A program made the translations under genes and the position numbers. A stretch of DNA of 61,392 bases, counting the filler, from Hausera hauseri (Eukaryota), in the NCBI GenBank assembly GCA_046269625.1. It is 7 parts of 7 records of this genome, joined end to end, with 100 filler letters (N's around TTAATTAATTAA, not from the genome) between each part and the next. Parts side by side here need not be neighbours in the genome. Positions count along the whole stretch, not along the records: positions 1 to 4,746 come from JBJURY010452246.1; 6 more parts are not named here. One strand, given 5' to 3'. Below the pieces are notes generated by a model. That model saw nothing but the letters and a program-made list of their open reading frames with translations. It did no database searches and was not told the DNA's origin. Below are positions 1-26,600 of this stretch, piece by piece (position 1 is the first letter of the stretch; every line of letters starts with the position of its first letter).

Positions 1-3000
1 CTCCAAAGTGATTTATGTACTCATCTTCTTTAAACCAGTTGTAAATTGAATTTTCTTAATCATCAGTATTTATATTCTTAATTGGAATCCACGTTGTTTT
101 ATTTTGTCTCACTACTAGGAGTCTCGATAACGTATGAGCACTACTTTTCATCACGATATTAGTAATGGTCTGAGTAGGAATAACCAATTGACATCTGAAT
201 TCAATAGTAGTGGAAGTTCTTTCTGGATTCATCTCGATGTTGAGATCCAGAATGTCTAAGAACTTTCTGTAGGAGATGAGTAATTTTTTTCTCCTGCTAG
301 CTTCATATATTGTGCTTATATTAGCTTGTTTCCGATAGATTCCCAATCAGTTATTTGCTTGTGACGGATTCACATTCGTAATGAAGCACTTTTTTCGTCT
401 ATGATTTTGTCCAGAACTATGGGAATAATTAAGCCATGTCCCATAATTGCCAGAAGTAGTCCTTTAACTCGTACCTTGTCTGTCGTGGAGTCTGAGGGTA
501 TGCAGTAAATTTTTCATTAGGTCATTTTTATCGTATCAGTTTGAATGGAGACACTAGTGGAATTCAACATGTCCCATTTACGTTTATTTGTTTTAGAAGG
601 AATCTCATTCTCTTCGTCAAACATAGGTTCTAATATTTCACAATCCATTATTTCAAATTCTTCGGCGGCCATTTCTTTTGCAATTACCGATATGGTTTTT
701 TTACTTTTATTAATGTAGTCTGTGTATTGTATTTCCATTGTAGTCCAGCTAAATATTGTTTATCGCGATTTAAAATGTCTCCGAAGTCTATTATGTTATT
801 GTGAAGATCTGGAGGAATCCATTCATAAGTTTCAGTCAACTTTCTGTGAGCTGCCATCATAAGTTGTAATCATCCTCTGGTGGTACTGGTAAATCTAGTT
901 ATTTTTAAAAAGTCTATCAACTGACTTAACCTTTTAATTCTATTGTCCATAGTATTTTCCACATTTTTAATGGGTCAAAGATTGCGCAGGTCTTGTTTAC
1001 TGGGATGCACAAAGTCTTACAAAATTTGTTGGCCTCCAATGCCACTATTCTATATCCTAGAATATATTTCTCAATTTCATTCTGAACCACTCGAGAATCT
1101 ATGCCATTCTCAAGATATTTTATGTATTATGTTATTTAGGTTGTGAATGGTTCTTCTAGGAGCTATTATCTGGTTGAATATTATTTCAACGTCTCTTTCA
1201 GCAATAATTATATTAATTGGCAGTGGCACTTGCGATCCATTGGATTTGTGTCCGTAAGCGAAAGATACAGCCACATGTCGAGTACTATTTGATTTATTAG
1301 TGTATAAAATGTTTGGTTCTTCTAACATCTCCCTTTCCGTCGGTTTAACTTTGTATCTCAAAGGTAGTAATACTGGAAGTTCCTTTTCGGCTCTGAATAT
1401 TTCAATCATTCCGATATTCAATATTTCCTTGTCTATAAGTCGGGTCCGTGTCTGATCCATTGGGTAATTAATCTGGCAGGATTCCTGACAGGCAATCGTT
1501 TCTATAGAGTTCTTTCTTCCTTTCTGTTTTCTAAATACCACTATAATCTTTCTAATTGCAACATGTATAGTCATTTTTAAGTTATTGGTGGTCCACTGTG
1601 GTAATCTAAGTGTAGTACCGGAATTAAATATCTTGAATGAGAAAATTTCGCGATTCCTTTGTTCTCCGTATTTAAGAGTGTTGGGTATTTTCGTAACCAC
1701 AGCTATCCTTTCCGTTGAACTATCCAGATATTTTAGTATTCTGTCGTAGAATGAGTATGTCATATTTCTTTCGGCCGTGTAGAGTTTTCTTATCGACTTC
1801 TCATCCTTCATATTTATCGGGGTTTCTTCGGGTATCTTAAAAATTTCTTTTCCTCCGAATTTAGGGACTGTATTCATTAGTTGACTGCTTCCGGATTCCG
1901 GAGCCTGAGTATCACAAAAATTTGACATGATTTTCTTTTCGTCATTTTACAGTTGATTATCGTGTATATACTCCTTTAGACCGAGCATGATTGGTCGGCT
2001 AATCAAATTTCTAAAATTCTTAATCATTGTCCACTCATTGGCTAGTAATTTAAGAAGTGTGTAAACTAATATGATTAGTCCAACTGATATGCTTGGTATG
2101 AGTAAGTAAACCATTAAGTTCTCTTTGAGGTAATTACGAAAATCTTTATTAATTATTAGGATAGGCACAATAAGGAATTTAGTACGTGTTCTTTCATTTA
2201 TATGCTTTTCATTACTTGTTATCATGTTTGAAACTGTGTGCTTTCTTTTTCCATTTTGTTCCTCAATTCTACTTAACTGCTAGCAAGGCTGATTTCATCT
2301 AATTATAGAGTAGTGTGATTCGTAATGTATTTTCTTTTTACACCTGGGTTTTCTACCCAATACAGTAATCGTCATAAGAATTATTCCAATGCCTGCTATT
2401 AATACAAATATCCACCAATGCTTTAGAACATATGTCTCGGTAGTTCCAGCCGAAACAGTGGTTAATTTCTATTTTTCGTGGTCATCGTTATATTTTATGT
2501 GACGATATTGATCTATTGCTGGTTGTGTTTTTATGACCACAATTTTTTAGTTATCTGAGGTTTCTATCCTCGCCAAATAATTAGTATCTGGCGTTAGTTT
2601 TTTAAAGAAGTTTCGTTTATTTGTCTCGTATTTGATAATAACTTTTTCATGAGAACCTGTACATGTTATCATAATGTTTCGTTCATTCATTATGTTTTGC
2701 AATATTATCTCAATACGGTCTGTATATGGCATTAGTTTAAATTTGATAGGGAAGTTTTTCATCCATTTTCCATAAAATACATGTTTGTGCAATTTCTGCC
2801 TCTGATCTTGTATTTTAGGCTGAGACTGGTTTTTTGGCTTAAGCTGAACTTGTGATTTATCTCTATCTCCCTTACCCTTATAGGTAGGTGTGGTCCATAA
2901 TGTTGACGATATTGTCCTTTCCACAGATCGTGGTGAGGTTATACATTGCGTAGTAAAAGCCGGAATAAGTATGTTTGGTTTAACTGCAAAAAGGATAGAA

Positions 3001-4746
3001 ATACGGTAAGAATGCACTCTAATAGATTGTCTGTTTTATAGCGTTTTGGTATGCATATAAACGAATTCTGTACCAGACGTATGGATAGAGTGTTCCGCTT
3101 AAGAGAACATTAATGTGGTTGTTTTATGGATGTGGGGATAGGGTCGAGCCATATACTGATTTCGAATCCAATGGGTAATAACTGTGTGGTGCGGAAATTC
3201 ATGCAAGGTGGTTGTCTTGTGAGATCAATACTAGAAATTTCAATATAATGTTTTAGGAATTGAAAGATAAAAGGATTGCGCGAAAATACATCAGAAGTTT
3301 CCAATATGTTCATCACCTGATAGGTGGGAACATGAAGAATCATACTTGGCTTCCAAAGAATTGTATCGATATTATTTGCCTTCAACGTTACATGGTACGT
3401 ATACGTCGAATTGTAATTGACGGAGCAGAAGGTTTTATTACGTGTTTCAAGAATTGTGCAAACGGAAGAGACATTATATTGTGATGTAAAGATGAAGTCA
3501 ACTTTATGGTGCATTATTACTGGCAAGTAGGTTCGAAGACAAATACTGGGTTTATGTGTGTCAATATTGATAATAATGGCGCGTTCAATCAAATCAGTAA
3601 GTGGTATAGCTGTTGTATTAGTGTTTATAGCCGCTGTAGGTATTAAAAGTGCTAGAAAAATGAGGTAAAGGATAGCCAAATATCGGCTTAGAATAAAGAG
3701 GTTAGGGTAATGTTCTAAAGTATTTACCGAGTGAGTTTTGTACATTGCTGCTACTTTGGGCTCTTCTGTTTTTGGTAATTCTAGCTCTGCTTCGCGTATG
3801 AAGTCGTTATATGATGTAGGTTCTTGAGTTACTCGTTGAACAGACACAGCCTCATATTTATGAGGTCTTTTCTGAATAACAAGTGTTTGTGGGCGCACCT
3901 CAACAATTTTGTATGGTCCTTGGCCTGTACGTGTTAACTTTAATGATTTGCCTTTCTTCACCGCTGGGTAGTGAACCATTATGTAATCTCCAATCTTGTA
4001 AGTATGTGGTCGTGTTTTCTTGTTAAATTGCTTTTTATATCCGGCTCTGTACTTTCCTTCAAACTGCTTTGCTTCGCGTTGAAAGTATTCGAGTCGTTTT
4101 AGCAAGATCTGGTATTGGTCATCCATGTAATCACTATTTAATAAGGATGATGGTAGTAATTCCGTATCTAACGGTAGTAAAGGTAATCGTCCGAACATTA
4201 ACTCAAAAGGTGAGTGATTGGTGCTTTTAGTAGGCGTAGTATTAATTGCAAAAGCCATAGTTTTCAAATGGTTATGTCAAGCTTTTTTATCATTTGCTAC
4301 TTTTGTAGAGAGGATGCCTTGGATGGTACGGTTCATTCTTTCGACCATGCCATTACATTGGGGATGGTATGGTGTCGTTAGCAAATGTTTGCACTGGAAT
4401 ATTTTTGACAATTTTTCGAAGAATTCGTTAATAAAATATGGTGCACGGTCAGTTAACAGCTGTTTCGGGGTGCCCAGTACAGCAATAATTTTGTAGAAAA
4501 AGGTTTCAGCAACTGTGCTACTCGTCTTGTTTTTTAATGGTACCAATAAAACGTAGCGAGAAAAGTAGTCAACAAGTGACAGTATGTATTTGTATCCTGA
4601 GTCTGAAGCTGGAAGGGGTTCAGAAATATCCACTGAACACACGTCCATTGGCTTCCGTGCTTCTGGTATGCTTCCTAAAAACGGTTTAACACGAACGTAC
4701 CCATCCTTTAATATGCTTATTCATTTGAGGCCAATAATATTTTGCG
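1..4746 (-). mobile_element. Decayed 3' part of a divergent relative of the giant Gypsy element (IN, post-IN membrane protein, dead exonuclease)
   Basis: Fragmented ORFs. IN core 4277-4648 (VDISEP..LTDRAPYF..TTPYHPQCNGMVER). IN C-terminus 'HYPAVKKGKSLKLTRTGQGPY' nearly matches copy 1 'HYPVAKPGKSLKLTRTGKGPY'. It is followed by the signal-like 'LAILYLIFLALLIPTAA', the FN3-like 'KLTPDTNY' (2547-3017), TM segments (~2360-2420, 2050-2120) and 'RHVAVSFAYG..PLPINIII' (1110-1928). Stops and frameshifts throughout. Confidence 0.88.
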
Positions 4747-8200: not shown

Positions 8201-9340
8201 ATTCTCACTAGGAAATCTCCATCTCCACGTCAAGACAGACAGATTTCATATCTCTCAACGTTCGCGTTCGAAATAAAACAAATTTCAGGGGTTGACAAAT
8301 TAGTGGCTGATTTTTTGTCGCACTCCGTCGACTCTATCACGTTTGCACCCACTTTTGATAGTGAGTTACTCCTACGGAACCTACCAGACGAGTCTATTCT
8401 CTCCGCCTTAAAATATTACAAAATCATTGATGGCTCAGCTTTGGACACCTCTAATCCTGGGTTTACTAAAATTATTCTATCACCTTCTTTGCAAAAAACC
8501 GCTTTCACCATTATCCATTCTTTGCGTCATCTATAATCCAAAGCTACTTATCGCTTTATTAAACGCCAAGTGATGTGGCCATCAATGAGAACAGATGTGC
8601 AGGACTGGGTTAGGGAGCATGTGGCATGCCAGAAGTTTAAAGTAGCCAAACACCTCAATCCGCCACTCTATCATTTTCCCTGCACATCACGTTTCGACAC
8701 CATTTACATCGACATAGTCGGACCTCTTCCACCTGACAACGGCCATCAATTCATTCTCACAATGATGGATTGTGCTTCTAGATGGCCAAAAGCCATTCCA
8801 CTTCGCTCAACCAACACTGAGACTATTGCAGATGTTTTTATACGCACATGACTCAGCAGATTCGGCTCACCTAAGCACATAATCACTGATCAAGGCTCTC
8901 AATTTGAGTCGAATCTTTTCACATCATTAGTAAATCGACTGGGGATCAAGCATATTCACACAACACCTTATCATCCTCAGTCAAATGGGCTACCGAAGCG
9001 ATTATATCGTACTATAAAAATCTCCCTTAAAATTCTAGCCGACTCCAATCAACACTGGGTAAACCTTCTTCATTAAGTTCTACTGGGATGGCGGAACACC
9101 CCATCCACAACCACAGGCTTCTCTCTGTCCAAGGCACTCTTTGGTACACCAATGCTTGCACTGTTCGAGTTGACGGAGTGCGATGAAACACCCACTGACG
9201 AAACAATCCGAGCAGTGCAGGAGTACTTTGTTGCGCTGAATAACGATTCTTTCTGCAGAATACTAAATCACAACAAGGCATACATTCCCGACACTCTATA
9301 TACAGCCAAATTTGTCTGGCTGAAGAATCCAGTGTCGCAT
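5225..9340 (+). mobile_element. Decayed CsRn1/Kabuki-like Ty3/Gypsy LTR retrotransposon (UBL-gag, PR, RT, RH, IN), pseudogenised
   Basis: Gag fragments with CHCC-type knuckles (CIYHNKFRDNARKC), an AAAAAAC slippery site at the gag end (6517-6523), PR 'IDTGA' (~6658-6672), RT 'KSPWASSLHVVPKKDGTFRPCGDY', RH 'LTTDAS', IN 'IDIVGPLP' and 'TTPYHPQSNG'. Many stops and frameshifts, and the RT core appears deleted. Confidence 0.9.
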
Positions 9341-12192: not shown

Positions 12193-12556
12193 GCCTTCAA
12201 TCCCGTCTTGATACTTCTTCTCAACCTTCGTCAAACTCACAGTGTTCTAATTCTTCTTCATTTCACAATGACAGATCACTTCATGCCTTTCCTCAATCTT
12301 CCTCAGACCTTCAATCTTACAAACCTACTTTACCTTCCTCCACTTAGTCNNNNNNNNNNNNNNNNNNNNNNNNNNNNNNNNNNNNNNNNNNNNTTAATTA
12401 ATTAANNNNNNNNNNNNNNNNNNNNNNNNNNNNNNNNNNNNNNNNNNNNCCAAGCATTTGAAAACATCCTGGAATAAGAAGAGAAACCTTAAAGTTGAGG
12501 TTTGGGAACTAAACTCTGGGGTTTGATTGATGCTGCGGGCATGTGTGCGTGGGTAC

Positions 12557-12875: not shown

Positions 12876-13297
12876 CTGTGGAGGAGAAGCACAAGTCGTC
12901 AGGGGTCTGTTGTGGGGGGTGAAACAAGCTGGAATAAATTGTGGGTGAAATGTGGTGTCACTGTGTGTGTGACATAGCATGTTAATGAAAGCCCTGCCTC
13001 TTACCTAGGGTGAAAAATACTTCTGTGGGGGTGGAAAATGATGGTTACCACAAGTACCATGAAAATGACAACCACCTTTGGGTCCTTCACACAAAACGTG
13101 AGCTTTTCCTTTCTTTATCTGTACTTTCGACACCTGGATCGACTCCTTTTCTTCTGATCCAGAGGAACAGATGAACTTGACCAGCGTACGAATAACGCAG
13201 CTCAGTGCTCTCAGTCATAAAACATTATTTTTTTCTTTGCACATCATAAATTTAACTATTTCTTTTCTAATTTATCACTACAAAATGAATACGTGAA

Positions 13298-16200
13298 ATG
13301 TATTCGGAGGTCATAGAAAATGACTGTAGGCTAAATCAGGAAATCTTAAGAACCAAATTGGCTCTAATCACATCAAATCCAGATATGTTGGTTCCAGCAT
13401 TACCCTTAGCAGAAGGAATGTTTGGAAGAGTGATTGGCGAAACTCTGTTAACCTTCATGTGCCAAAAACTTGAAGTAAATCTAGCTACTGATAGATCAGA
13501 ATTAACAACATGCACATCCGAAATTCCAGTCAAGTTAAACAATGAAATAAGATTGGTAACACCAATAACACGAATTCTTCTACCAAGGGAAACCAAACCC
13601 ACTATTATTCAAAATTGTTCAGGACTAATAAAGCCTAGGATAAAATATAATGATCAAGGTCAATGGGTACAACTACCTGATAGTACTATAGTCCAAACAC
13701 CATTAAAAATAACGATGACATCCTTAAAATACGCTGTCGATATAAACTTATTCCAGGATACAGCGAACGTAGGATTATATGGACCAAACGAGTTAAATAC
13801 ATTCATAAAACAAATCATGTTCCCTATAATGAGGGAACAGGAATTCAATCGAGTAGGGCATGCAGTCCTAATGAGTGGAACATCATCCAGAGACTATAGC
13901 AAAGGATGGCAAAGTGTTCTAGATCCTGATCTACAAGAAAGAACCATAAAAAAGGTTTTTGGTATAATATTTGGACATTTTCAGTGGCTTGGTAATATAG
14001 CCTCCACTATATTAGTTTTTTACTATGGATTCGTAATACTTAAAAATGGATGTATGACATGTGTAGATGCATATTCCATATACGCCATAACTGGATGTAC
14101 CTGGAAAATATTGGCCGCTCTACTAAAACCAATAGCTAGAATTTTTATGGTGCGGCAAGAAAATAAATGGAAACAAGGAATTGAACAACACGTGAACTAC
14201 ATTCCACCTAATCGAAGACGTCATAATGGAAAACCTCCAAAACCACCTAAACGAACAACAAGCACCTTAAGAGGAAGTTTAAATGATTTAAGAAAGAGAG
14301 TCAAAAGTTTTATATCACAGAATCCAGAAAATGTTTACGACAAAGTACAACCAAAAGTGTACAATCCTAAATGGCCGAGTCCGTCACTGTCATATCGTGC
14401 AATGATAAAAGCTAAACAGGATATCTGTACAGCACCTCCCGAATACCAATCGGATATGTCAGGAAGAATGCTGTATTCTCCAAGAAGATCAACATCGCCC
14501 CTTCAGAATATACCATTAATGAATCCAGAATTAACACGAATGTTACAAGAAAAAAGAACCGTTGAGTTACAACAGTCTATATCAAGAAGTATTGATGATA
14601 TATCGATCCATGATCCATATGATCAGCGAGAGAAATACCTAAAGTTGTCGGTATTAAAAACATCGGGTCCTCAATATCCTATGGACCAACTAAAAGAAAT
14701 AAAAGAAATACAAGATGAAACCCATCATCCTAATGTTACTGTTTTTGGTACTAACAATTTTACAATATCAACATTAGATGACGAAGTTTTAGATCCTCGA
14801 TTAAATCAAACAATTCGTCGAAAGGTTGATAAAAGACCAAGAACATTAATTAAAGTAGGAAATATCATGTTAAAAGCTCTGATAGATACAGGAGCAGCAA
14901 TATCCGTAATAAAAGAAAATTTAATTCCAGAAGATAAGAAACATGAGTTAATAATTCCAGAAATCCCGACAATAGGTAGAAGCATATTTGGCACTACTCA
15001 ATCTCCAATAGCTTATTGGGAAACAGGTATAATCATATATGGTGAATACGTTAAAGTTAAATTCAGAGTAATGAAAGAATTAGCCGATGAAGTCGTCATT
15101 GGAATGGATGTATTGTCAGAATTGAAAGACATGGTTATCAATTTAGCAGATGGACAATGCAAACCATATAAAAGCGTAAAATTACCTGAAGGCTATAAAC
15201 CTAATACAGTATGGATGGATTGTGATGAAGATATCCCGGAATTTACAGAAGTAGTCTTGTTCGCAAGTACAGCGATAAATGATGAAGAATCAGACTTTTA
15301 TTTTAAACCCAAACTTCAGCACGAAACTAACTTGATAATGATGCCATCCGTTAGTAAAATAGTTGATAATAAAATTCCAGTTCGAATATTGAACACTACT
15401 GTCAAACCCCTATGGATAAGGAAGAACCAAAGACTTGGCGAAATAGTAGCTTCAGTTACTGAAGCAATAGAAGAAATCCATAAATCAAAGGAATATGTGC
15501 TATTACCCAAATTGAGCGATACATATTTAAATCTCCAACAGTATGCTGAATTAAGTATTAAAGTATTAAAATATGAAGATGTTTTTGCCAAAAATGAAGA
15601 CGAATTAGGAAAACTCAAAGATTATCATATGACTATCAAATTAAAGAAAGATCCAGAAACAGGATGTGAAATCGATCTTGCAGATCAACCACAACCTAAA
15701 TACTATCTACCACCAGAGTCAGTAAGACAGGATTTAGACGAGGAAATTAAAAGACTCCTAAAGTTAAAAATAATCGAAAAATGCAATGCGCCTTGGGTAT
15801 CACCTACCCTAATGGTACCAAAAAAGAACACAACCAAAAAACGATTGTGTATTGATTTTAGACACATTAATAAATACATCATAAGTGATACATATCCATT
15901 ACCCAAGATAAAGGAAATTATTGAAAAATTAAAGGAAAGTGAATTCTATGTTACTATCGATTTCCAATGTGGTTTTTGGCATGTTAAAGTTGCCAAAGAA
16001 GATAGATATAAAACTGCTTTTCGAGTACCACGAGGTATATACCAATTCAAACGAATGCCTTTTGGATTGAAGATAGCTCCATCAGTTTTCCAAAGACTGA
16101 TGACACAAATATTAATAGAGGAAAATAATCCAGGAGTAAAAATGCCTAACTTTGAAGGAGACATGGTTTATATCGATGACTTAGTTCTAACAGGAAAATC

Positions 16201-19200
16201 CTTTGAACAACTACTAGAAAAAGTAGTAGAAAAGCTAGAAAAGTGTAGGAAGACGGGATTAAAGATAAACCCTAAAAAATGTAAATGGTTCAAACAAACC
16301 ATAATTTATTTGGGTTTTAAAATATCTAAGAAAGGCATAGAGACTACAGAAGAAATAATCCAAAAGGTTATCGAATATCCTGAACCTAGAAATAAAAAAG
16401 AATTACAAGGATGGTTAGGATTAGTTGGTTTCTATGCAGACTTCATAGAGAACTATGCACAAGTAAACGAATCTTTATATCAATTACTAAAGAAAAAAGT
16501 AAATTGGGAATGGACTCAAGAAAGGCAAGATGCTTTTGATCATATGAAAAAACTGCTCACGTCAGCACCTATTTTGCAATATCCTGATTATGACTATCCC
16601 TTTATCATTAAAACAGACGCAAGTGGAAAGGGATTAGGATATATATTAGCACAACAATTTGTAAACGAACCTACTGAACATGTAGTAGTATACGGTGCTA
16701 GATCATTAAAACCCGCAGAAACGCGATATCAAGCTACCGAATTAGAACTATTGGCAGTGAAAGAAGCTTTGAGACATTTTTGTTACTATATCTATGGCCG
16801 GAAAGTCATCCTTTATACAGACCATCAGGCCTTATTAAATAAAAAATTCAGTCCAGAAATAACCAAGAGAATGAATAAATGGTTAGCCTATATAAAAGAT
16901 TTTAATATAGAATTCAGGTATAGGCCAGGAAAGCAGAATACTGATGTGGATGCATTATCAAGAATGCCCTTCAATGTATCATCAGTTGAAGAAGTTGATA
17001 ACGAATTCAATGTTATGTTACAGAAATATAGAGAGATAAACACAGCAGCTATTGCCGAAAAACAAGTAAAAGATGTTCAAACCAATTATATAGTAGAATA
17101 TGTAAAAACGAGAAAAATGCCACAACACGATCAAATAACTAAATATCTCAAAAAACATGGAATGCAATTTATATTAGACCAAGAGATATTAAAATATAAT
17201 CAGGATGGACGACTACTGGTAGTAGTACCAAAATGTTTAAGAAATGCAGTTATGTGGCAAGAACATGATGCTAATATGGCGGGTCACCCGTCTAGCAGAA
17301 AAACGAAAAAGAGGATAAAGTTGAAATATTATTGGCCAACCCTAGAAGTAGATGTACAAAACTGGGTAGACGAATGTAAAATGTGCGCTACCATAAAAAA
17401 TAAAGGAGAACGTTTTAAGCCACCATTGAAACTTATCCCTGAACCTAATAGCCCTATGGAATTCTGTGCTATGGATTTCTCGGGGCCATTTCCTCTCACA
17501 CATAATGGAAATAAGTTTATTTTGTTATGTACTGATTATCTCACAAGTTACTCTATCCTAATTCCAACTAAAGATTTACTAGCAATAACAGTGGCCAAAG
17601 AATTTATCAATAATATACTTTGTCAATTTGGAGCACCACGCTATCTACTAACAGATAGAGCCCCAAATTTTAGAAGCCAATTACTAAGAGAAATAACTGA
17701 CATATGTCAAACTAAGCGATTGCTAACCACAGCATATCATCCGCAATGTAATGGAAAAGTAGAACGATTAAATTATACCGTACAGTGTCTCCTGTCAACT
17801 ATGATAGATAAATCTCAGAAGGATTGGGATGAACATTTAAAAGTAGTTCAATTTGCAATAGCGACCACACCGACATCTAGTAAGTATACACCGTTTGAAT
17901 TACTTTATGGTAGAAAACCCCTTTTACCATTAGATATACAGCTCTTGCCAGAAAAGGATATTCCTATCAATACAGATGAAGAAGTTATCCATGCAGGTGT
18001 TGTGCATAGTCTTGCTAATTATTGGATAAGAGCTAAACATGCCATACGTGAATACAAAGCAAGTTATAAAGAACAATATGATAAGAAAAGTAATCCTCAT
18101 AATTTTCAACCGGGTGATAAAGTCATGATACACTATCCCGTTGCCAAACCAGGCAAGTCCTTAAAACTAACTAGAACTGGTAAAGGACCATATCTAGTTG
18201 TAAAAGCAACTCCAGAAAATGTCTTTATAGAAAAAGGTACTGGTAAGAAAACCAGAATAGAGTGTGTATCTGTACAGAGAGTGACTAAAGGACCGAAAGA
18301 ATCTACACCTCAACAAGAGCCTAAATATTCGCTGAGATCATACAAAAAGACTACTATTAAACCAGCTTGTAGCCTGGAAGAATTATTATTTTTAGTAGTA
18401 ATTTTCGGATTAATTTTATCAACAGCAAGTCAAACGTTGGTAACTGAACCAGTGAATGCAAACCTAGACTTAAAAATCAAAATCATTTGGAAATATGAAC
18501 CTTATCTGATAGATTGTCTACTCGAAGGAGAACCTGTATTTTCAAAAATAGGATACTTAATGATCCCACCTAGTAAACAGGATATATGGTTACTTACAAA
18601 AAGATGTAAGGTACCCCTTATGAATGAAGTATGCATACTACAACTTTATTACCTTCCAGTGAATGGTATATTGGCTAAAGAAAATGAATTTGAGCCGATA
18701 GCCAGACAAGTGCATGTAGAAAAGATAGGTCAATCTTTTTTCTTTACTCAAGATAAAGATATTGAACCTAGACTTATAGATAAAGTCGATCTAAAAAGAC
18801 CTACGTTAAATTCAGACGTTGATTTACAAATAACTTATTATTTTCCAAAATTTCTTATGCACACTTCAGGCAAAAAAGCCCTACACTATCATATTCAAAT
18901 GTCAGTTCCACAATTTTTCGAAATTTCAGTTCTAACAACCAGTCCAACCACTAGAATCAAAACTACAGTCGTAATAAATAGAAAAGTCTTGCGGATTAAA
19001 CCACAAGCTCTACAAAAAATACCATCAATTTCAAATGTAATTAAAGATACGTACATCGAGTTTAAAACCCTAAGTCCAGCTACTCAACCGATACAGATAT
19101 CATGCATAGGAAAATATCATATCATGTATTCGGTAATCAAGGAAAAAGAAAGAACTACAAGATGTTCTGAACTTCAACCTGATGAAGAGTATTTAGTAAT

Positions 19201-21844
19201 TTTTACACAAGAAGGTAAACAAACCATGCATAATAAAATTAGGACTCAAACTAAAATATACTCATCTAAAAACATACCATACCAACCAATATATCTAACA
19301 ACGACATATATTGACGATACAATATATGAACCAAATATGCTAAAAACTATAATACCGTTTATAGTAATATTGACATTTTTGCTAATTATCACAACACCAT
19401 TTACCATTCGACAGTTATTGGTATGGAAGAGAAAAAGAAATATAATAAGGAACCAGAGAAAACAATTACAGATCCTCACGAGAAAAATTAACACAAATAA
19501 AAGAACTGCAAGTCATGTGCAGTTAAACCTAATCAATACGAAAATGCAACCTTTAATAACGACAATGTTTGTTATGTGTTGTTTACAAGTAACAAATGTT
19601 TCTATGATGACTGTGGAATTGACAGAATTAAGCATAAGAGAACTAAAGCTAACTACGATCTCTAAAGATGTAGGACGCTTACATGTCCCAACTAGAAATC
19701 TCTTTAACCAACCAAAGATTGAAAGTTCATATGAACAACCAATAAAAATCTATCAACCTACACAAACCGATTTCGTACAAAAACGAAATCAAACATTAAT
19801 ATTTTCTTTTAGAATACAACTCGACCAAATGGCACACTTCCAAATCGATCTGGACGATTCCGACGCCGATTCAGATACCTCAGTACAAACTGTGGTCCCT
19901 AACCCTAAACGAAGGGTTATACCACCCAACCAAGAATTAAGATTTTCAAATCCAACATTTGGACCACCAATGGTACGTGGAATATTACAATATCCACCAC
20001 AATCAATTCCTTCAATTTTACCAAAACAACTAAAATCAGTTGTTGAAATAAGAAGACCACCACCAGATTTTTCAGAAATACCATCAGAAAAGAAGCAGAA
20101 ATACCAGGAATTAAAAACAAGTATGGATAAAAATCTGGTCGAAAGCCGAGAAGAAAAAATCAAGAACAAAACTTGGGAAGAATTATTACAAAAACATATA
20201 GTCCTACACGAAGGACCAAAAAATCGATTCTCTTCCAAGTTCTATAAAACTATTTTGCAACTCTCAGAGCAAAATTCAGATATATTTTTTCCAGAAGCCA
20301 AATTTTTGGATAATCAACTCAAAGAATCAACATATCACAATCGCAGTTTCCGAATAATATCAATGGAAAAACCACACTACAACATTAGCCTCCAACAGTT
20401 GCTAAAAATACAAGACAAATATGACTTCCTTTATATACATATTGCTCAAGGACAAATACAATTTATTTCTGGAAATGATAATTATTCTTCCAGTAACAAG
20501 GACAAATCAATCAAATCTGCCTATGCCACTATGGAAATCTCTCACTTAGCAATGAGAACTCCTATTCATTACAGAATAATTACTACACCGGCAGTATTAG
20601 CATTTGAGATAGTCTCTAAAGAAGATATGCTAATCGGACTGCAACCACCGTTGTTTTACGCGTCACCAGATTTCCAGAATACTAATAATTTTCAACTAAC
20701 AACAGTTGTTAATTATAGGTATTTGGCAGCCTCATTTGCCTATGGAGTAAATGGAAAGCCTATACCAATTGAAGTCACGATCGCAGATGAAAAGAAGTTG
20801 CTGATATATCATGCATTTAGTAATCCTAGAACAAGGATATCCAATACTAATGAGCATCATCATGGAATAACATTAACTCTCATGATGCAAGCAGAAGATG
20901 AAGAAGTCGTTCGTCAGGAAATAATCAAATACCTATTCGGATACACTGTAATATCAGTCAATACAGTGGCTTTATTAAAAGCATTACGGATTCCTATTGA
21001 ATTTCTGCATGGAATAATTGACTTATTGGCTTTATCCAATACAAAGGATCGGTTTCATGAGATAGGACTACAAAAAGTCAATCTCACTCAATTACCTCAA
21101 GCATATGGAATCAAAGAACACTTTCTGAAGCAGGCCGAATCAGTATTACAAATGATCATGCAAATTCATGGGCTGATCACTGAAAATTGTTCAAACGAAA
21201 AATTAGCATTACAATGGACATCGCTACCAAATAATTTAGTTCATAACGGTTCCTTTCAGAAAATTCCTGAAAAATATCATATTGATTATAAACAAGAAGC
21301 CATACAAAACGACACACCAAGTGTGTTTGATCAAATAAAAAAACAAACAGACATGATAATGAAAAAACTCGAGAAGGAACGACAAGAAATACAACATATT
21401 GGAAAAAAGTTATCAATTCTTTTATACGGAGGAAAAATTAGGACAGTGAATGTATTTTATATACAACAGCCAAAATCAAAGATTACAACTAAAAAACAGT
21501 TGTATCCACATCCTGATTTCGGAAAACTTGTGGCCATAATATATAAAAGCTCCGAATATCAAACCTTACATATGGCTGGTATTGGATACCAAGCAGAAAT
21601 CCTCAGGGAATTGGATGAAGAGACCATTACCACTATGCAACCTATTCCAATTCAGATGGACCTAACCCCCATCCCTAAACCAAGGGGGGGAAAACCCTTA
21701 ATGCTCAATAATACCAACAAAGCAAACCTTCGAATGATTCTGTATTCGTCGCCGAATGGATACATATTGGAAAATCTCTATGGTATCCAGACAACAGAAC
21801 AGTTACCAGAAATGCAATCCAGTGACATTGTGATCCAGCTATGA
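13298..21844 (+). CDS. Polyprotein C-terminal 2848 aa: glycoprotein C-half + TM, PR, RT, RNase H, IN, second signal/ectodomain/TM, unknown domain, dead DEDDh exonuclease
   Basis: TM ~13955-14045; PR LIDTGA (DTG 14885); RT YIDD (16169); RH TDAS..ELELLA..YTDH..DALSR; IN HHCC (17264-17386) and D-D35-E core (MDFSGP, LTDRA, KVER); GPY 18185; hydrophobic segments 18374-18433 and 19346-19408. Confidence 0.95.
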   Translation: MYSEVIENDCRLNQEILRTKLALITSNPDMLVPALPLAEGMFGRVIGETLLTFMCQKLEVNLATDRSELTTCTSEIPVKLNNEIRLVTPITRILLPRETKPTIIQNCSGLIKPRIKYNDQGQWVQLPDSTIVQTPLKITMTSLKYAVDINLFQDTANVGLYGPNELNTFIKQIMFPIMREQEFNRVGHAVLMSGTSSRDYSKGWQSVLDPDLQERTIKKVFGIIFGHFQWLGNIASTILVFYYGFVILKNGCMTCVDAYSIYAITGCTWKILAALLKPIARIFMVRQENKWKQGIEQHVNYIPPNRRRHNGKPPKPPKRTTSTLRGSLNDLRKRVKSFISQNPENVYDKVQPKVYNPKWPSPSLSYRAMIKAKQDICTAPPEYQSDMSGRMLYSPRRSTSPLQNIPLMNPELTRMLQEKRTVELQQSISRSIDDISIHDPYDQREKYLKLSVLKTSGPQYPMDQLKEIKEIQDETHHPNVTVFGTNNFTISTLDDEVLDPRLNQTIRRKVDKRPRTLIKVGNIMLKALIDTGAAISVIKENLIPEDKKHELIIPEIPTIGRSIFGTTQSPIAYWETGIIIYGEYVKVKFRVMKELADEVVIGMDVLSELKDMVINLADGQCKPYKSVKLPEGYKPNTVWMDCDEDIPEFTEVVLFASTAINDEESDFYFKPKLQHETNLIMMPSVSKIVDNKIPVRILNTTVKPLWIRKNQRLGEIVASVTEAIEEIHKSKEYVLLPKLSDTYLNLQQYAELSIKVLKYEDVFAKNEDELGKLKDYHMTIKLKKDPETGCEIDLADQPQPKYYLPPESVRQDLDEEIKRLLKLKIIEKCNAPWVSPTLMVPKKNTTKKRLCIDFRHINKYIISDTYPLPKIKEIIEKLKESEFYVTIDFQCGFWHVKVAKEDRYKTAFRVPRGIYQFKRMPFGLKIAPSVFQRLMTQILIEENNPGVKMPNFEGDMVYIDDLVLTGKSFEQLLEKVVEKLEKCRKTGLKINPKKCKWFKQTIIYLGFKISKKGIETTEEIIQKVIEYPEPRNKKELQGWLGLVGFYADFIENYAQVNESLYQLLKKKVNWEWTQERQDAFDHMKKLLTSAPILQYPDYDYPFIIKTDASGKGLGYILAQQFVNEPTEHVVVYGARSLKPAETRYQATELELLAVKEALRHFCYYIYGRKVILYTDHQALLNKKFSPEITKRMNKWLAYIKDFNIEFRYRPGKQNTDVDALSRMPFNVSSVEEVDNEFNVMLQKYREINTAAIAEKQVKDVQTNYIVEYVKTRKMPQHDQITKYLKKHGMQFILDQEILKYNQDGRLLVVVPKCLRNAVMWQEHDANMAGHPSSRKTKKRIKLKYYWPTLEVDVQNWVDECKMCATIKNKGERFKPPLKLIPEPNSPMEFCAMDFSGPFPLTHNGNKFILLCTDYLTSYSILIPTKDLLAITVAKEFINNILCQFGAPRYLLTDRAPNFRSQLLREITDICQTKRLLTTAYHPQCNGKVERLNYTVQCLLSTMIDKSQKDWDEHLKVVQFAIATTPTSSKYTPFELLYGRKPLLPLDIQLLPEKDIPINTDEEVIHAGVVHSLANYWIRAKHAIREYKASYKEQYDKKSNPHNFQPGDKVMIHYPVAKPGKSLKLTRTGKGPYLVVKATPENVFIEKGTGKKTRIECVSVQRVTKGPKESTPQQEPKYSLRSYKKTTIKPACSLEELLFLVVIFGLILSTASQTLVTEPVNANLDLKIKIIWKYEPYLIDCLLEGEPVFSKIGYLMIPPSKQDIWLLTKRCKVPLMNEVCILQLYYLPVNGILAKENEFEPIARQVHVEKIGQSFFFTQDKDIEPRLIDKVDLKRPTLNSDVDLQITYYFPKFLMHTSGKKALHYHIQMSVPQFFEISVLTTSPTTRIKTTVVINRKVLRIKPQALQKIPSISNVIKDTYIEFKTLSPATQPIQISCIGKYHIMYSVIKEKERTTRCSELQPDEEYLVIFTQEGKQTMHNKIRTQTKIYSSKNIPYQPIYLTTTYIDDTIYEPNMLKTIIPFIVILTFLLIITTPFTIRQLLVWKRKRNIIRNQRKQLQILTRKINTNKRTASHVQLNLINTKMQPLITTMFVMCCLQVTNVSMMTVELTELSIRELKLTTISKDVGRLHVPTRNLFNQPKIESSYEQPIKIYQPTQTDFVQKRNQTLIFSFRIQLDQMAHFQIDLDDSDADSDTSVQTVVPNPKRRVIPPNQELRFSNPTFGPPMVRGILQYPPQSIPSILPKQLKSVVEIRRPPPDFSEIPSEKKQKYQELKTSMDKNLVESREEKIKNKTWEELLQKHIVLHEGPKNRFSSKFYKTILQLSEQNSDIFFPEAKFLDNQLKESTYHNRSFRIISMEKPHYNISLQQLLKIQDKYDFLYIHIAQGQIQFISGNDNYSSSNKDKSIKSAYATMEISHLAMRTPIHYRIITTPAVLAFEIVSKEDMLIGLQPPLFYASPDFQNTNNFQLTTVVNYRYLAASFAYGVNGKPIPIEVTIADEKKLLIYHAFSNPRTRISNTNEHHHGITLTLMMQAEDEEVVRQEIIKYLFGYTVISVNTVALLKALRIPIEFLHGIIDLLALSNTKDRFHEIGLQKVNLTQLPQAYGIKEHFLKQAESVLQMIMQIHGLITENCSNEKLALQWTSLPNNLVHNGSFQKIPEKYHIDYKQEAIQNDTPSVFDQIKKQTDMIMKKLEKERQEIQHIGKKLSILLYGGKIRTVNVFYIQQPKSKITTKKQLYPHPDFGKLVAIIYKSSEYQTLHMAGIGYQAEILRELDEETITTMQPIPIQMDLTPIPKPRGGKPLMLNNTNKANLRMILYSSPNGYILENLYGIQTTEQLPEMQSSDIVIQL

Positions 21845-22130: not shown

Positions 22131-22143
22131 GAGGAGGGAGAGA
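22131..22143 (+). promoter_or_regulatory. Polypurine tract
   Basis: GAGGAGGGAGAGA immediately before the TG at the LTR start. Confidence 0.85.
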
Positions 22144-22934
22144 TGTTGTGGAGATGTTAAGTAATTTAGAAGAATTTAAATATTAGAATGTTAAATATTT
22201 AAAATAATACAAAAACAAACTTAAAGATTACACAAAATTATTGATTTTAACAAGACATGATTTTAACAAACACAAATTAACCACGCATTTTATAGTAGAC
22301 CAACAAAGATCTAACATTAGGCTACTCACAGCCTTAATGCAAATTTTATGTTTTTATTTAATATTTTACATTTTTTACAATTACATAAAAGATTAAATTT
22401 AAAAGTTTAAAAGTACCATAACAGGTACTTGAGTTTTAGACTCATATTTGAGTCATTGATACCAAATTCTGTCAAAGGCCCCCAGAAAGTTACTAAACAA
22501 AGTAACTTCTGCGTGATGGTCATTCTAAACTTGGCAAAAACTATAGAAAAGGTCACTAAAACATCATGACCATAATACGTGATCAGCGTGATCACGCCAA
22601 CAAGCATTTTTAGACTATATAAACGAACGATTAGTTACAAACTCGCCATAATTTTTTAAGCCATTAAAAGTTTTCTAAACTATGCAGTGGATGCGTTAGT
22701 TTGGTTGACCAATATTAGGTCTCACTTCAAATCAATATTTTTGATTTTCTTTACCCTCGAAAGGTTTGTAAACCTTTGTGTTTATTCGAGGTAATTAAAT
22801 TCAAAGTTTGGTTCTAGGATCAAATCATTTAATTGGTAATTTTCTTTATTGTTTTTAATTGTTATATTTTAGAACTTTTACTATTTTGTTGTATTTTGAT
22901 AAATACAAAATTTGTTGTATCCGACCTGTTTTTG

Positions 22935-23204
22935 ATGCTTGGATTTTTTAAAGAAATTTTACAGAGATTTCGAAATCGGTTTCGTTCTAGGCATTATCAT
23001 CCGATAAGTTTTGGGCATTATCATCAGATAGATTCTGGGCGTTATCATCAGATAAATTCTGGGAATTATACATTATATTTTGACTCCGACCAAGACTTTT
23101 TGAAGATATTGGAAGCCTTCTGGGGAGAAACTAAATTGGATTTAGAAATTCATAAAGTGGAAAAAACAAAGGAGAAAATTTATATTTGGTGTAGACTTAA
23201 GTAA
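22935..23204 (+). CDS. Putative small LTR-encoded ORF (89 aa from ATG 22935) containing an 8-aa repeat
   Basis: Open frame 22833-23204 with an in-frame 24-bp repeat (RHYHPISF/GHYHQIDS/GRYHQINS). No recognisable homology. Confidence 0.35.
   Translation: MLGFFKEILQRFRNRFRSRHYHPISFGHYHQIDSGRYHQINSGNYTLYFDSDQDFLKILEAFWGETKLDLEIHKVEKTKEKIYIWCRLK
22985..23070 (+). repeat. 24-bp tandem repeat, 3.5 copies, inside the LTR
   Basis: ttctaggcattatcatccgataag / ttttgggcattatcatcagataga / ttctgggcgttatcatcagataaa / ttctgggaattata. Confidence 0.9.
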
Positions 23205-23463
23205 CTCGTCTTATTTATTTCTTCTTTGTAATTAAATTAAACTTATCCCAAAAAGTAACGCGCTTGGCAGTCTAGAGCAATTAGACTACGCCATTTCACA
23301 CAAAACTAATTAAAATCAAGTTTAGGAATAATTAATTTCTTTCTTGATTGTGGTAATTTTTCATCTAAACCTTACCAAAACACAAACAGTCATAAAGACA
23401 CTGGTGAAAGGATTTTTAATAATTTTGAAATTCTTTTTTAACCAATACCGAATCCGTAACATT

Positions 23464-23481
23464 TGGCGCCCGAACAGGGAC
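23464..23481 (+). promoter_or_regulatory. Primer binding site complementary to tRNA-Lys(UUU)
   Basis: TGGCGCCCGAACAGGGAC is an 18/18 match to the canonical tRNA-Lys3 PBS, 2 nt after the LTR-terminal CA. Confidence 0.95.
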
Positions 23482-23644
23482 TGTTTGTGTACTGATAGGT
23501 AAGAATTCAACAAGGGTAAAATAAATAAAATATTTTGCTCAGAACAGCTTAAAAATTCCTCCGAGACAGTCTCGTAAATCTAAACAAGAAGCTTTAAAAC
23601 GCTTATCTGTCAATTCCACACAGTCGTTAGATAGACAAAAATCT

Positions 23645-26600
23645 GTGAAAAATCCAAAACCAAAGTTAAAAGATCTAACCATAGACATTGAACCATTAAA
23701 TCTTAATCTTCTAGAAGATAATAATTTACCTAACATGGCACAACAACAACAACAACAACCCCAAATTAATGTAACTGTTTTTGAGTCTTTGAACATACCC
23801 AAATACGACGGAGATCCTGCTGGATTATTAAAATTTTTAAAAACGTATCAACTTTTAAGTGAAGGTCTGGGCATGGATACTCAAGCCTATATCAGACGTA
23901 TGCCGTTATATCTAGACAACGTAGCATTAGATGTTTTCCAGGAACTAACAAGAGATGAAAAGGCTGATTGGGAAAAACTAACAGCTGCGCTTATCAAAAA
24001 GCTAATGCCTACAGTAACCCCCACAGCCCAGTTAGCTATCTTACAGAAACGTTTTCAGTTACCCGGAGAAACAGTAACACAATATTCATACGCGCTTTCT
24101 GAATTGGTAAAAAACTATGCCAACACAGTAAAAACCCAAATTTTAATAAAAAATCCTGAAGCTAATGAAGATCAACTAAGAGTCGAAACTGATATTCATC
24201 TGTTGACCCAATTCCAAAGAGGAATAAGGAAAGATATTCGTAACGATGTCTTAAAAAAGAATTGTTTTACTTTTAGAGAGGCAGTAAGAGAGGCCCAAAA
24301 CCTTGAGGCATATGTTGGAACATTTACAGGTGATCCTAAAAATAATAATAAAAAATTTCCACAAAATAACAATGGAAACCAACAAAATTCTCAACAACAA
24401 AAGCCACAAAATGCTAATAATCAGCAACAATCTGATGCCTCAAAGTCTCAAAGTAATGCTACTTTTCCACAAAGTAAAGGTAATAACACCAATAAAAACC
24501 CCTGGAGTAGCAATAATAATAGTAATAAGAGTTCATGGAATAAAAATAATTCGAACCAATACCAACAGAAAGGTAGAGTGGACTTAAATAGAAATGGAAC
24601 TCCAGTAATATGCAAAAGATGTGGCCAAAACGGTCATACTTCGGTCAATTGTATGACCCCAGTAGAACAGTTACCGGCTGTAAAGCAAGAAAAAGTGTTG
24701 AATCTATCGTCATTACACGAAACACTGGATGACGTAAAAATCAAATTGGACAGATTGCCTCCACAAATAAAGGAGCAGTTTCTTAGTCAAGCCGCTAAAG
24801 AAAGCACCGATGTCGATGATATGCTTAAAAGATATCAAGCAGGAAAGTATAAAAACCCCATATCATCAATGATCGACGAAGAAGATTATACGGACGAATT
24901 TGTCACTAACAGTATAATCCTTACAACCAGAAAAAGAGCTTTAGACAAATTATTTAAAGGGGAAACCTTAACACCAGCGGAAGATTATTTGTTAAAGGCT
25001 ATGCCTGTAGGACCTGAAGTTGAACCTTCACAAATGCAACAAAATGCACCTGCACAATTCAACTCCGATGAAGAAATAGAAATAAATCCATTAGCCTCGC
25101 TAGAGAAAGATGAGGAGAAAGGTGAACAAGTGCAGAAAGAACTTAATACAGATTTAGATGACTCTTCGAGCGATAGTTCCGAAAAACCTCTAGTAATTGC
25201 AGATACAGTTGATAAAGTTTTAAATAAACTGGAAATCGAAACACAAGAAACTGGTCCACCATTAACCGCTTATCAATGGATACCGATACAACAGGCACCT
25301 GAAACTGAAGAGTTTCTCACCCAGGTAGTTCCAAAAGTTATTAAAAAGTCGAAGCAAAAACCACATGCTAAACCAATCGAAACAATGTTGGAAAATGATA
25401 ACGAAGAAAAATATGTTAATAAGAGAATAAAACAAGATGTCAAAAATATACTAAGTGGAGAAATACCAGAGTATGCAAAAGATTTGCCAGAGATGCAGTT
25501 GGTAATTTTATCGAAACATCTGAATGATCCAAAAAAGTTGAAACAATCCAAAGTATTTGATGATCTCTTACAGACATTAAAACAAATACATAAAAATCGT
25601 TACAGTAAAGAATGTACTGAAATTGATGAATTAATAGACGAGGTTTTAGGTAGAAAAAGAGATACTTCAATCTCACAAATACTAACCAAATCACCTTCAG
25701 TAGAAGCAATAGATTTAACTGAGGATTCTCCACAGACAGAAGATACTTTGCCACAATTGCTACAAAAAGCTAGAGATGTGGACATGGAAAAGATTTCCAC
25801 TTTATCCCAACTTGAAAAAATTTCGCAAGGATTGGAAAATCAATTATTCCTTAAGAAACTAAACTATCAAGATAGACAAAATGTTCAAAGCAGCATCCGA
25901 GATTTACAACAAAAGATAGCCGATTTTCAACAAAGGTTACAGCTCATCGAAGAGATATATTTTGATATTGATAGAATAAACCAAATGAAGCTTTCAAGGC
26001 AAGAAAAGATGAAATGGATTCACAGAAAGAATGAAATAGCTCTGGTGTCAGAATATCCTTTTCAAAAAGAGAATGAAAAATGTATTTTTGAAGTTCGACA
26101 AGAGATTGACAAATTCACCAAACCAACTATACAAAAGGTTAACGAACTAAAACTTAGGATCGAAAAATTGAGTCAACTCAACTTACCTAATTTGTCGCAG
26201 GAAAAATTAAATAAACAAATTCTAAAACTAAATAAATTCAAAAATACGTTTTCAGAAGTAGATCGCGCTAAAATAAACGCTATAGAAAGTTTTATTGATA
26301 GAATAGATGATACACCGAAAATCATGAACAAAATTGAGGAGTTAAAGCTAAAACTGAAAGATAAAAGAATTAAATCAGTAGATAAACCCAAAGCCAAAAA
26401 ACATTTCAAAATGATATCAGCCCTTAAACCATTCTTTACAGAATTAGATAAAAAGAAAATTCAAAGGATAGCTGAATGGTATGAAGATGCGACAAGTAGT
26501 CAAAATCAAGATATTGACGACATACCATTAGAAGAACTAGATGACTCAGAAGAAGCCGACACGGCCGAAGAGTTAAATCTAACGGAAGAAGATGTAGAAA

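Follow-up and report, generated by a model that had tools for sequence, protein, structure and literature searches.

A post-integrase cassette shared by three divergent Ty3/gypsy subfamilies of Hausera hauseri, with a second membrane protein and a candidate RNA-binding pseudo-enzyme

The window, a stretch of 61,392 nucleotides of Hausera hauseri DNA (assembly GCA_046269625.1) along which all positions are counted, consists of seven contigs joined by N-TTAATTAATTAA-N spacers. No tRNA genes were found in it. Contigs 1, 3, and 7 carry a Ty3/gypsy integrase (IN) followed by a cassette of further coding regions. The three integrases are 43-45% identical in pairs, compared to at most 35% identity to outside integrases, and all of them end in the invariant tail H-Y-P-x2-K-x-G-x-S-L-K-L-T-R-T-G-x-G-P-Y, located at 18131-18193 on the plus strand of contig 3 and, on the minus strand, at 3911..3973 in contig 1 and 59814-59752 in contig 7. 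SLKLTRTG is present in none of 20 database integrases matched by the tail profile. With all 20 taken as the outgroup, the window integrases form one clade (support 99/95 against 21 other rows), in which contigs 3 and 1 are grouped (99/94) and contig 7 is separate. The first-pass annotation had read this tail as diagnostic for the three contigs, and its claim of a conserved cassette depended on their integrases forming a clade; both the tail, in three of three, and the clade were recovered.

The element in contig 3, previously regarded as intact, proved instead to be two partial tandem copies, 93% identical over 3824 nt, with one common LTR. Copy A (13289..21844, plus strand) is a 5′-truncated single ORF of 2851 aa containing the C-terminal half of env, pol in the order PR-RT-RH-IN, and the entire post-IN cassette. 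Copy B (23525..32692, plus strand) is a 3′-truncated single ORF of 3055 aa that contains gag with CCHC, a ubiquitin-like domain (26903-27106, plus strand; Pfam PF00240, E 1e-5), a Monjiviricetes-type fusion glycoprotein (27905-29836, plus strand; Pfam PF24664, E 4e-61), PR, RT, and RH. About 1270 aa are common to the two partial ORFs. The LTR (TG...CA, plus strand) was read from the sequence at 22144..23461, its limits being set by the polypurine tract before it (22131-22143, plus strand) and the primer-binding site after it (23464-23481, plus strand), with a single LTR copy at hand and both outer element ends truncated. The primer-binding site is presumably of the tRNA-Lys type. In layout, contig 3 is Burro-like: it is a GAG-ENV-POL element in which the class III-type fusion glycoprotein comes after gag and ahead of pol. 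A PDB sequence search with env gave no matches.

Contigs 1 and 7 break off within IN or RH, and no LTR, polypurine tract, or primer-binding site was seen in either. Contig 1 retains IN only (3821..4746, minus strand; Pfam rve, E 1.8e-13), with the zinc-finger end, the DDE core with D, D, and E all present, and the GPY tail; it is 45% identical to contig 3 by tblastn, has a single stop at 4279-4277, and changes frame near 4690, upstream of which the contig ends. Contig 7 retains decayed RH and IN including the tail (59662..61392, minus strand). Stops and frame changes occur in contig 1 and frame changes in contig 7, in line with the earlier description of both as decayed. They had also been described as having no obvious nucleotide similarity to the contig 3 element, which is true of the cargo, where comparison of the DNA of contigs 1, 3, and 7 gave no significant similarity, but not of RH/IN, to which the short matches between contigs are confined (for example, 68 nt at 78% identity between contigs 1 and 7, and 189 nt at 69% identity between contigs 7 and 3).

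The order 3′ of IN is identical in all three contigs, as first proposed: a signal-like segment comes first, then an ectodomain and a TM helix, and finally an IHxA domain and an exonuclease fold. The spacings in contigs 3, 1, and 7, respectively, are 60, 74, and 55 codons from GPY to the signal, 324, 429, and 414 from the signal to the TM helix, 325, 243, and 138 from the TM helix to NxLK, 41, 38, and 44 from NxLK to IHxA, and 96, 98, and 101 from IHxA to the ExoI position. The cassette is fused into a single ORF in contig 3 only; the IHxA-exonuclease module comes after a stop in contig 1 and after a frame change in contig 7. The cassette is not uniform: the RING finger occurs only in the contig 7 type, ORF fusion only in contig 3, and most of the ectodomain is unalignable.

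The first part of the cassette is a second type-I membrane protein, whose signal peptides and TM helices were assigned throughout from hydropathy. In contig 3 (18365..19393, plus strand) it comprises a signal-like segment (18365-18421), a conserved beta domain (18986-19285), and a TM helix (19337-19393). N-glycosylation sequons are absent from the copy A ectodomain. Copy A also has a third, weak hydrophobic stretch (1.59), which could alter the topology. In contig 1, all on the minus strand, a putative internal signal-peptide-like segment in the IN frame (3625..3697, hydropathy 2.42) is followed by an ectodomain (2430..3622) with stops, one frame change near 3040, and five N-glycosylation sequons, by a TM helix (2355..2411, hydropathy 2.67), and by an extra hydrophobic helix (2061..2117, hydropathy 2.38) whose frame stops at 1949-1947. 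The corresponding protein of contig 7 (58297..59595, minus strand) has a signal-like segment, an ectodomain, and a TM helix (58353-58297), and frame changes near 58575 and 58480 break up its conserved beta domain (58734-58482). Demonstrable ectodomain homology, judged by sequence, is limited to the membrane-proximal ~100 residues, for which the true score was reached by none of 2000 shuffles in all three leave-one-out profile tests; in contig 1 this beta domain (I.C ... L.P.T.Y; 2487..2786, minus strand) gave a leave-one-out E of 0.0025 with 0/2000 shuffles. The N-terminal two-thirds was significant in none of the three tests, and its gap-penalised score was reached by 7 of 120 shuffles; nor was the ectodomain alone significant between contigs 3 and 1 (87/300 shuffles). 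The proposed shared ectodomain is upheld for its membrane-proximal part and not demonstrated for the remainder. The motif of the membrane-proximal domain is weakly FN3-like, with 1wk0 at E 1.7 as the only PDB profile match and no FN3 match in Pfam, and an ESM Atlas search with the ectodomain was uninformative (best score 0.84, unnamed clusters).

The second part is the IHxA-exonuclease module. An HMM built from eight outside proteins only (P0001-P0008) was run on the window in all 42 reading frames and matched exactly three loci, in contigs 1, 3, and 7 (E 2e-61, 2e-42, and 3e-11, the first being contig 7). After removal of two contig-7-like proteins, the three loci were still matched at E 7.5e-23, 1.5e-36, and 1.2e-7. 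Profile similarity of the post-IN regions, on which the original claim hinged, is thus significant for both the module and the membrane-proximal domain. Module identity is 20-25% among the window copies and 17-23% to the outside homologues, with 44% between contig 7 and P0001. In the module tree, the window copies group with P0001, P0005, and P0007 with support of only 92/93, and contig 1 is a long branch. All eight outside homologues begin no more than ~90 residues before the IHxA domain and none shows pol or the second membrane protein; they resemble stand-alone ORFs.

Both fold identifications, and the lack of canonical catalytic residues in both domains, are new here. In an AF2 model of contig 3 (pLDDT 75), the IHxA domain (20216..20629, plus strand) is predicted to be a double-stranded beta-helix (DSBH) of AlkB/2OG-Fe(II)/cupin-like type, matching ALKBH6 (Z 10.1, rmsd 3.6, 131 aligned), Ofd2 (Z 9.5), and prolyl-4-hydroxylase (Z 9.4) over model residues 1-139, where the matches span 124-133 residues and the DSBH was modelled jointly with the exonuclease. 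Foldseek also matched cupins and vaccinia C16; oxygenases and cupins are thus both among the matches, and Pfam gives none. A single-sequence fold model (pLDDT 34) was discarded. The contig 3 nuclease (20711..21208, plus strand) has an RNase H-like DEDD fold by both profile and structure comparison and would be an ISG20/REX4-like DEDDh pseudo-exonuclease: ISG20 matches with Z 20.1, rmsd 2.1, and 160 aligned residues, ISG20L2 by profile with E 1.3e-17, and the EXO-like pseudo-nuclease of Exuperantia with Z 11.7. Exuperantia is an RNA-binding dead exonuclease. A second PDB-based search returned exonucleases only, and in PHROGs an exonuclease was the sole match, for two of 11 module members. In contig 1, the DSBH (1326..1760, minus strand; IHVA at 1568; outside-only HMM E 9e-5), whose fold assignment is taken over from the contig 3 model, is followed by an ISG20/REX4-like fold without catalytic D/E (800..1289, minus strand) with frame changes near 1110 and 950. 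The contig 7 module, with IHLA at 57808, lies at 56996..58039 on the minus strand.

The exonuclease fold suggested earlier is accordingly confirmed as ISG20/REX4-like DEDDh, but the canonical catalytic residues (D-x-E, D, and H..D) are missing from all three window copies. ExoI is lost in eight of the 11 aligned sequences, these copies among them, and ExoI D-x-E, ExoII D, and ExoIII H..D are retained in three (P0003, P0004, and P0006). Judged by these residues, the DSBH stands beside both live and dead exonucleases. In the DSBH, with the iron-triad columns placed by analogy to the AlkB layout, HxD is at the expected place in 0/11 sequences, and the alignment holds no HxD/E...H triad, conserved distal His, or 2OG-binding Arg. 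Instead, at an overall identity of ~20%, the invariant or near-invariant residues are non-catalytic: a Y, P-N-L-K with Asn and Lys in 11/11, the His of IHxA in 10/11, and P-R. By the alignment, the module lost its canonical catalytic residues before the subfamilies split, and it would probably be inactive as a result.

Additional domains follow the module. A C-terminal domain in contig 3 (21452..21790, plus strand) is probably the counterpart of the pre-RING domain that precedes a C3HC4 RING finger in contig 7 (55960..56520 for both, minus strand); by sequence, the identification is suggestive only, since chance scores reached it in 1/2000 shuffles by profile and 184/2000 pairwise. No matching domain was found in contig 1. 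The RING finger is also present in P0001 and was not found in contigs 1 or 3. Searching ten cargo pieces against Pfam at E up to 10 gave nothing above the curated cut-offs except the ubiquitin domain, near its cut-off; weak matches to Tox-PL-2 and ZapG were rejected as chance. Two database searches gave weak negatives: the module profile found no polyprotein with the module among 2169 proteins of 1524-4350 aa, and a word-based search with copy A residues 1690-2851 found no candidate among 4079 proteins of 1568-4990 aa.

The cassette has very probably been inherited vertically with pol since before the three subfamilies split. The module tree pairs contig 3 with contig 1 (99/97) and leaves contig 7 separate, which is the IN topology, a match that for three taxa has about a 1-in-3 chance by itself. 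The post-IN frame of copy A holds 1162 open codons where about 85 stops would be expected, and the pol genes of the tandem copies differ by 206 synonymous and 39 non-synonymous codon changes. Because the protein is conserved where DNA similarity is gone and these codons are open, the cassette appears to be under selection. Its presence in three subfamilies, the HMM matches, and the IN-like topology bear out the idea of an old cassette rather than a recent passenger. As for a selected part of a whole lineage, selection is upheld, and the breadth comes to three subfamilies in one window and homologues free of context.

The best overall explanation, which we put forward as plausible and nearly evenly balanced, is an inherited cassette consisting of a second membrane protein and an RNA-binding pseudo-enzyme, carried after IN by a lineage of animal Ty3/gypsy (Metaviridae-type) elements. 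In this membrane protein, a conserved membrane-proximal beta domain is joined to a fast-diverging outer part. As contig 3 encodes a single polyprotein, Pol would form a cytosolic loop between the env TM helix and the internal signal of the second protein, and might be released by signal peptidase together with the protease of the element. The DSBH joined to the DEDDh fold, its catalytic residues lost, may bind nucleic acid, capping or shielding the ends of element RNA or cDNA, and may act as a decoy against the nucleases, RNA-modification, or small-RNA surveillance of the host. The second membrane protein could assist the class III fusogen, as its partner in attachment or as its chaperone, or could be a surface modulator, and the RING of the contig 7 type might add targeted degradation of host factors. 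This mechanism, pseudo-enzyme and membrane role together, is offered tentatively. We consider doubtful the more ambitious proposal of a "complex" retrovirus-like lineage of invertebrates that has two envelope proteins, a counter-defence protein built from two dead nucleic-acid enzymes, one of AlkB fold and one of ISG20 fold, and a RING ligase in one branch. A two-envelope reading would have the class III fusogen encoded ahead of Pol and an attachment protein encoded separately behind it, with DSBH-DEDDh as an undescribed family of mobile-element proteins that has live as well as dead branches.

An old cassette whose module is still an enzyme or ligand sensor is rather unlikely. The IHxA His and N-L-K could form a non-canonical metal or nucleotide site, in keeping with their conservation and with a DSBH kept beside live and dead exonucleases alike; the missing triad, distal His, and Arg argue against it. 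In such a scheme, the exonuclease fold would merely deliver substrate. A role in particle assembly instead of counter-defence, tethering Pol and genomic RNA to the Env-bearing membrane, is also unlikely: the single ORF of contig 3 would flank Pol with a membrane anchor on each side and leave the module in the cytosol beyond the second TM helix, but in contigs 1 and 7 and in all eight outside proteins the module looks like an ORF of its own, and the RING and ubiquitin-like domains point to host interaction. It is improbable that the module came from an exchanged pool of accessory ORFs and repeatedly took up its position after IN, the order being partly convergent. The DEDDy ORFs of rotifer retroelements, as the accessible part of their description presents them, are a precedent (PMC5408684), and the stand-alone appearance of the homologues, the stop or frame change before the module in contigs 1 and 7, and pairwise identities near 20% are consistent with exchange; the same position and order, the second shared domain, the shared loss of catalytic residues, and the topology shared with IN in three taxa argue for common descent. 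A recent neutral passenger from a host gene in one copy, with the lost catalytic residues read as decay, is refuted by its presence in three subfamilies that can no longer be aligned in their cargo DNA, by the open frame against 85 expected stops, and by the conserved non-catalytic motifs.

Captured env, exonuclease, or AlkB genes have so far been known in LTR elements one at a time. Under the inherited-cassette reading, a second membrane protein and a double pseudo-enzyme kept down to 20% identity would indicate that env-bearing retroelements have a need in their life cycle that has gone unrecognised, either to enter cells by means of two glycoproteins or to protect their nucleic acid from surveillance by the host. 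The live and dead DSBH-DEDDh versions, as classed by residues, provide a direct comparison of what remains once catalysis goes. The module copies are invisible to Pfam, and therefore such cargo is probably missed in repeat annotation.

In a literature search with thin coverage of subscription sources, no paper was found that describes an LTR element with a DSBH-DEDDh module or with a second membrane protein after IN. The Troyka definition specifies CG...CG termini with no GPF/Y motif and no env (PMC12440569), and Troyka identity for contig 3 is ruled out by TG...CA, GPY, and env. Closer are Burro/GYPSM1, giant gypsy-like elements of planarians, described in the accessible part of the source as having a single very long ORF with gag, a ubiquitin/SUMO-like domain, an in-frame mononegavirus-like env, PR-RT-RH-IN, and extra host-interaction domains (PMC6431247). 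Contig 3 likewise has env in frame between gag and PR, a ubiquitin-like domain, and a ~5000-aa ORF, but its element is smaller, the comparison being one of description and not of sequence. BCL2, BIR, MATH, and ankyrin gave no Pfam match in ORFs A and B at E up to 0.1 or in the gag-env spacer at E up to 10, and that part of the Burro description names no post-IN membrane protein, DSBH, or exonuclease (PMC6431247). GAG-ENV-POL errantiviruses with HSV/gB-type env, reported from Nematoda, Bryozoa, and Platyhelminthes in the portion of the source at hand (PMC13524379), share the gene order and class III-type fusion glycoprotein (PF24664) of contig 3. That portion describes no second membrane protein after IN; exonuclease, AlkB, fibronectin, and accessory occur nowhere in the main text, and an IN-tail motif search of supplement cells of up to 400 characters came back empty (PMC13524379). 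Orchid Ty3/gypsy elements carry an AlkB m6A demethylase and thus, like contig 3, an AlkB-fold domain in a large gypsy element; their AlkB, in the available part of the account, is a plant gene, recent, catalytically active, and recognisable by sequence (PMC9289625), whereas the likeness of the window DSBH is at fold level only, with no iron triad and an exonuclease fold joined to it. The Juno and Vesta LTR elements of bdelloid rotifers also have a DnaQ-like exonuclease downstream of pol, which the accessible text describes as an RNase D-like DEDDy ORF3 with intact catalytic residues, a separate ORF that replaces env (PMC5408684). The window nuclease, in contrast, is predicted to be of the DEDDh type, has lost its catalytic residues, is fused to the DSBH, and is additional to env. 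In fold it resembles the ISG20, ISG20L2, and REX4 exonucleases, and it differs from them in its missing catalytic residues and its N-terminal DSBH partner.

Decayed relatives of the contig 3 element are present on the minus strands of contigs 1 and 7 (tblastn E 2e-70 and 3e-120, respectively), and the integrase (IN) tail motif HYP..K.G.SLKLTRTG.GPY is invariant in all three copies. The first-pass annotation, written on contig 1 (positions 1-4746), had seen no obvious nucleotide similarity between the decayed copies and the contig 3 element, which holds for the cargo, where nothing is significant, but not for RH/IN, within which short DNA matches occur. A profile from the three tails, with 7996 candidates scored, retrieved 20 database integrases, none of which (0/20) contains SLKLTRTG. 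In an IN tree whose outgroup was these 20 proteins and an unrelated contig 2 gypsy, supplied by the database without designed sampling of gypsy clades, the three integrases lie on one side of a branch with support of 99/95, and those of contigs 3 and 1 are sisters (99/94). The three loci share 43-45% IN identity with one another, and none exceeds 35% with any of the 21 other integrases. The branch support recovers the clade that the annotation had anticipated. The contig 2 element (7331-9208, plus strand) is a decayed gypsy RT-RH-IN of a different lineage, outside the clade and without the tail motif.

The post-IN regions share a module composed of the IHxA domain and an exonuclease fold. A phmmer search with residues 1690-2851 of copy A on contig 3 against 1.84 billion representatives gave eight matches, all at residues ~2312-2626 and none in the ectodomain. 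An HMM built from these eight outside homologues (P0001-P0008) alone matches contigs 7, 3, and 1 with E values of 2e-61, 2e-42, and 3e-11, and also finds the IHxA and exonuclease domains separately in each, confirming the expected profile similarity. AlphaFold, run on an alignment of 11 rows, gave a model (pLDDT 75) in which residues 166-331 match ISG20 (Z 20.1, rmsd 2.1, 160 aligned), and residues 1-139 match ALKBH6 (Z 10.1, rmsd 3.6, 131 aligned), Ofd2 (Z 9.5), and a prolyl hydroxylase (Z 9.4). Further matches, from Foldseek, are to cupins, to vaccinia C16, and to viral entries for replicases and cupins. Because of these matches, the IHxA domain is a double-stranded beta-helix (DSBH), which may descend from AlkB or from another cupin-fold family. 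The HxD..H triad is found in none of the 11 sequences, and ExoI is lost in eight, including contigs 1, 3, and 7. The other three (P0003, P0004, and P0006) keep the DEDDh residues behind the same DSBH and are, by their sequences, the live members of a two-domain family that seems not to have been described before. Ancestry, domain order, folds, and the loss of canonical catalytic residues are established; a non-canonical active site within the DSBH is a rival reading.

By hydropathy, all three loci have a signal-like segment downstream of GPY, at a distance of 55-74 codons, followed 324-429 codons farther on by a TM helix. With leave-one-out profiles of the last ~100 ectodomain residues, the left-out locus tops the non-training matches in the six-frame window, and its true score is reached by 0/2000 shuffles in each of the three tests. 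The three-way alignment of the membrane-proximal ectodomain scores above 200/200 shuffles. Frame paths of the broken copies were picked with the motif in view; a frameshift-aware search free of this choice also gave 2/500 and 6/500 shuffles. Judging by sequence, these last ~100 residues are homologous across contigs 1, 3, and 7. The domain is FN3-like by motif only (PDB profile match E 1.7), and neither FN3 nor any other Pfam match was found. Homology of the outer ectodomain could not be demonstrated (significant in 0/3 leave-one-out tests), and copy A against contig 1 over the entire ectodomain is not significant (87/300 shuffles). Contig 3 (19553-19609, plus) and contig 1 (2117-2061, minus), unlike contig 7, have an extra hydrophobic segment after the TM helix, which could change how the downstream part is oriented in the membrane.

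The post-IN frame of copy A is open for 1162 codons, against ~85 stops expected. Both the observation and the proposal of an old, selected cassette are supported; the ectodomain is conserved only in part, and three subfamilies sample the lineage. As to membrane topology, processing, and function, we infer that the non-catalytic module would bind nucleic acid and shield, or act as a decoy for, the element's RNA or cDNA, accompanied by a second surface protein that would change fast in its outer part, as host-facing proteins do. Alternatively, the cassette might act in particle assembly.

Repeated capture of the module from a common ORF pool would be a further explanation. In the module tree, rooted on the three sequences with intact DEDDh, contigs 3 and 1 pair (99/97), contig 7 groups with P0001 and P0005 (99/96), and the wider group has support of only 92/93; the topology matches that of IN, within the limits of three taxa, long branches, and pairwise identity of 20-25%. 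A RING finger ends the contig 7 type and P0001. Copy A may share the preceding domain with contig 7, as sequence profiles suggest (1/2000 shuffles by profile, 184/2000 pairwise); neither was seen in contig 1. The module is in frame with pol in copy A only. Since a stop (contig 1) or frame change (contig 7) precedes it and all eight outside proteins start shortly upstream of the DSBH, a separate ORF may be its usual state, but decay and gene calling could account for this appearance. No polyprotein with the module was found among long proteins, a weak negative.

The supposedly intact element of contig 3 (12450-33660) proved to be a composite of two partial tandem copies, neither whole, with 93% identity across 3824 nt and 206 synonymous and 39 non-synonymous differences in 1260 codons compared. 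Both are long plus-strand ORFs. By Pfam, ORF A (13289-21844, 2851 aa) contains the C-half of a Monjiviricetes-type fusion glycoprotein, then PR, RT, RH, and IN, with no Pfam match in the following 1160 residues; ORF B (23525-32692, 3055 aa) contains a gag knuckle, a ubiquitin-like domain, the same glycoprotein type (E 4e-61), PR, RT, and RH. About 1000 acidic, coiled-coil-like residues separate gag knuckle and env (23525-27900, plus), the ubiquitin-like domain (26903-27106, plus) being their sole annotated part. The PR-RT interval (15180-15480, plus) and its ORF B counterpart resemble the dUTPase-like insert of such elements; the interval gave no dUTPase or other Pfam match. One LTR separates the copies, with TG...CA ends, a 5' polypurine tract, and a 3' primer-binding site that we take to be of tRNA-Lys type; about four imperfect ~24-nt tandem repeats are visible by eye within the LTR at 22990-23075. 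On its truncated 5' side, copy A borders GC-rich, element-unrelated DNA with a 187-codon minus-strand frame (12450-13264).

Elsewhere, contig 5 carries parts of another LTR element (42292-44635, minus): a gag-like ORF of 479 aa, which bears Cys/His knuckles, and an RT fragment. An additional RT fragment lies at 48076-47882. Contig 5 also has host-like frames (44950-47044, minus) with a cadherin domain (Pfam E 2e-12) and, by eye, EGF-like cysteine repeats, indicating an animal genome. Contig 4 has a 539-codon frame with a PAM2 motif (35220-36839, minus; Pfam E 6e-6) and a gap of 168 N (34684-34851). In contig 6 (51187-51586), four ~77-82-nt repeats lie between 56-nt inverted arms, MITE-like or minisatellite.

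Contig 3 has the layout described for Burro (PMC6431247) and for GAG-ENV-POL errantiviruses (PMC13524379). Burro's BCL2, BIR, MATH, and ankyrin domains were not found in the element, which we therefore call Burro-like without assigning it to Burro. Troyka (PMC12440569) does not fit. Neither a DSBH-DEDDh fusion nor a second post-IN membrane protein was found described in the largely open-access literature covered. The exonuclease cargo of rotifer elements consists of active DEDDy ORFs (PMC5408684; also PMC6338049), and the AlkB cargo of orchid gypsy elements is an active enzyme (PMC9289625).
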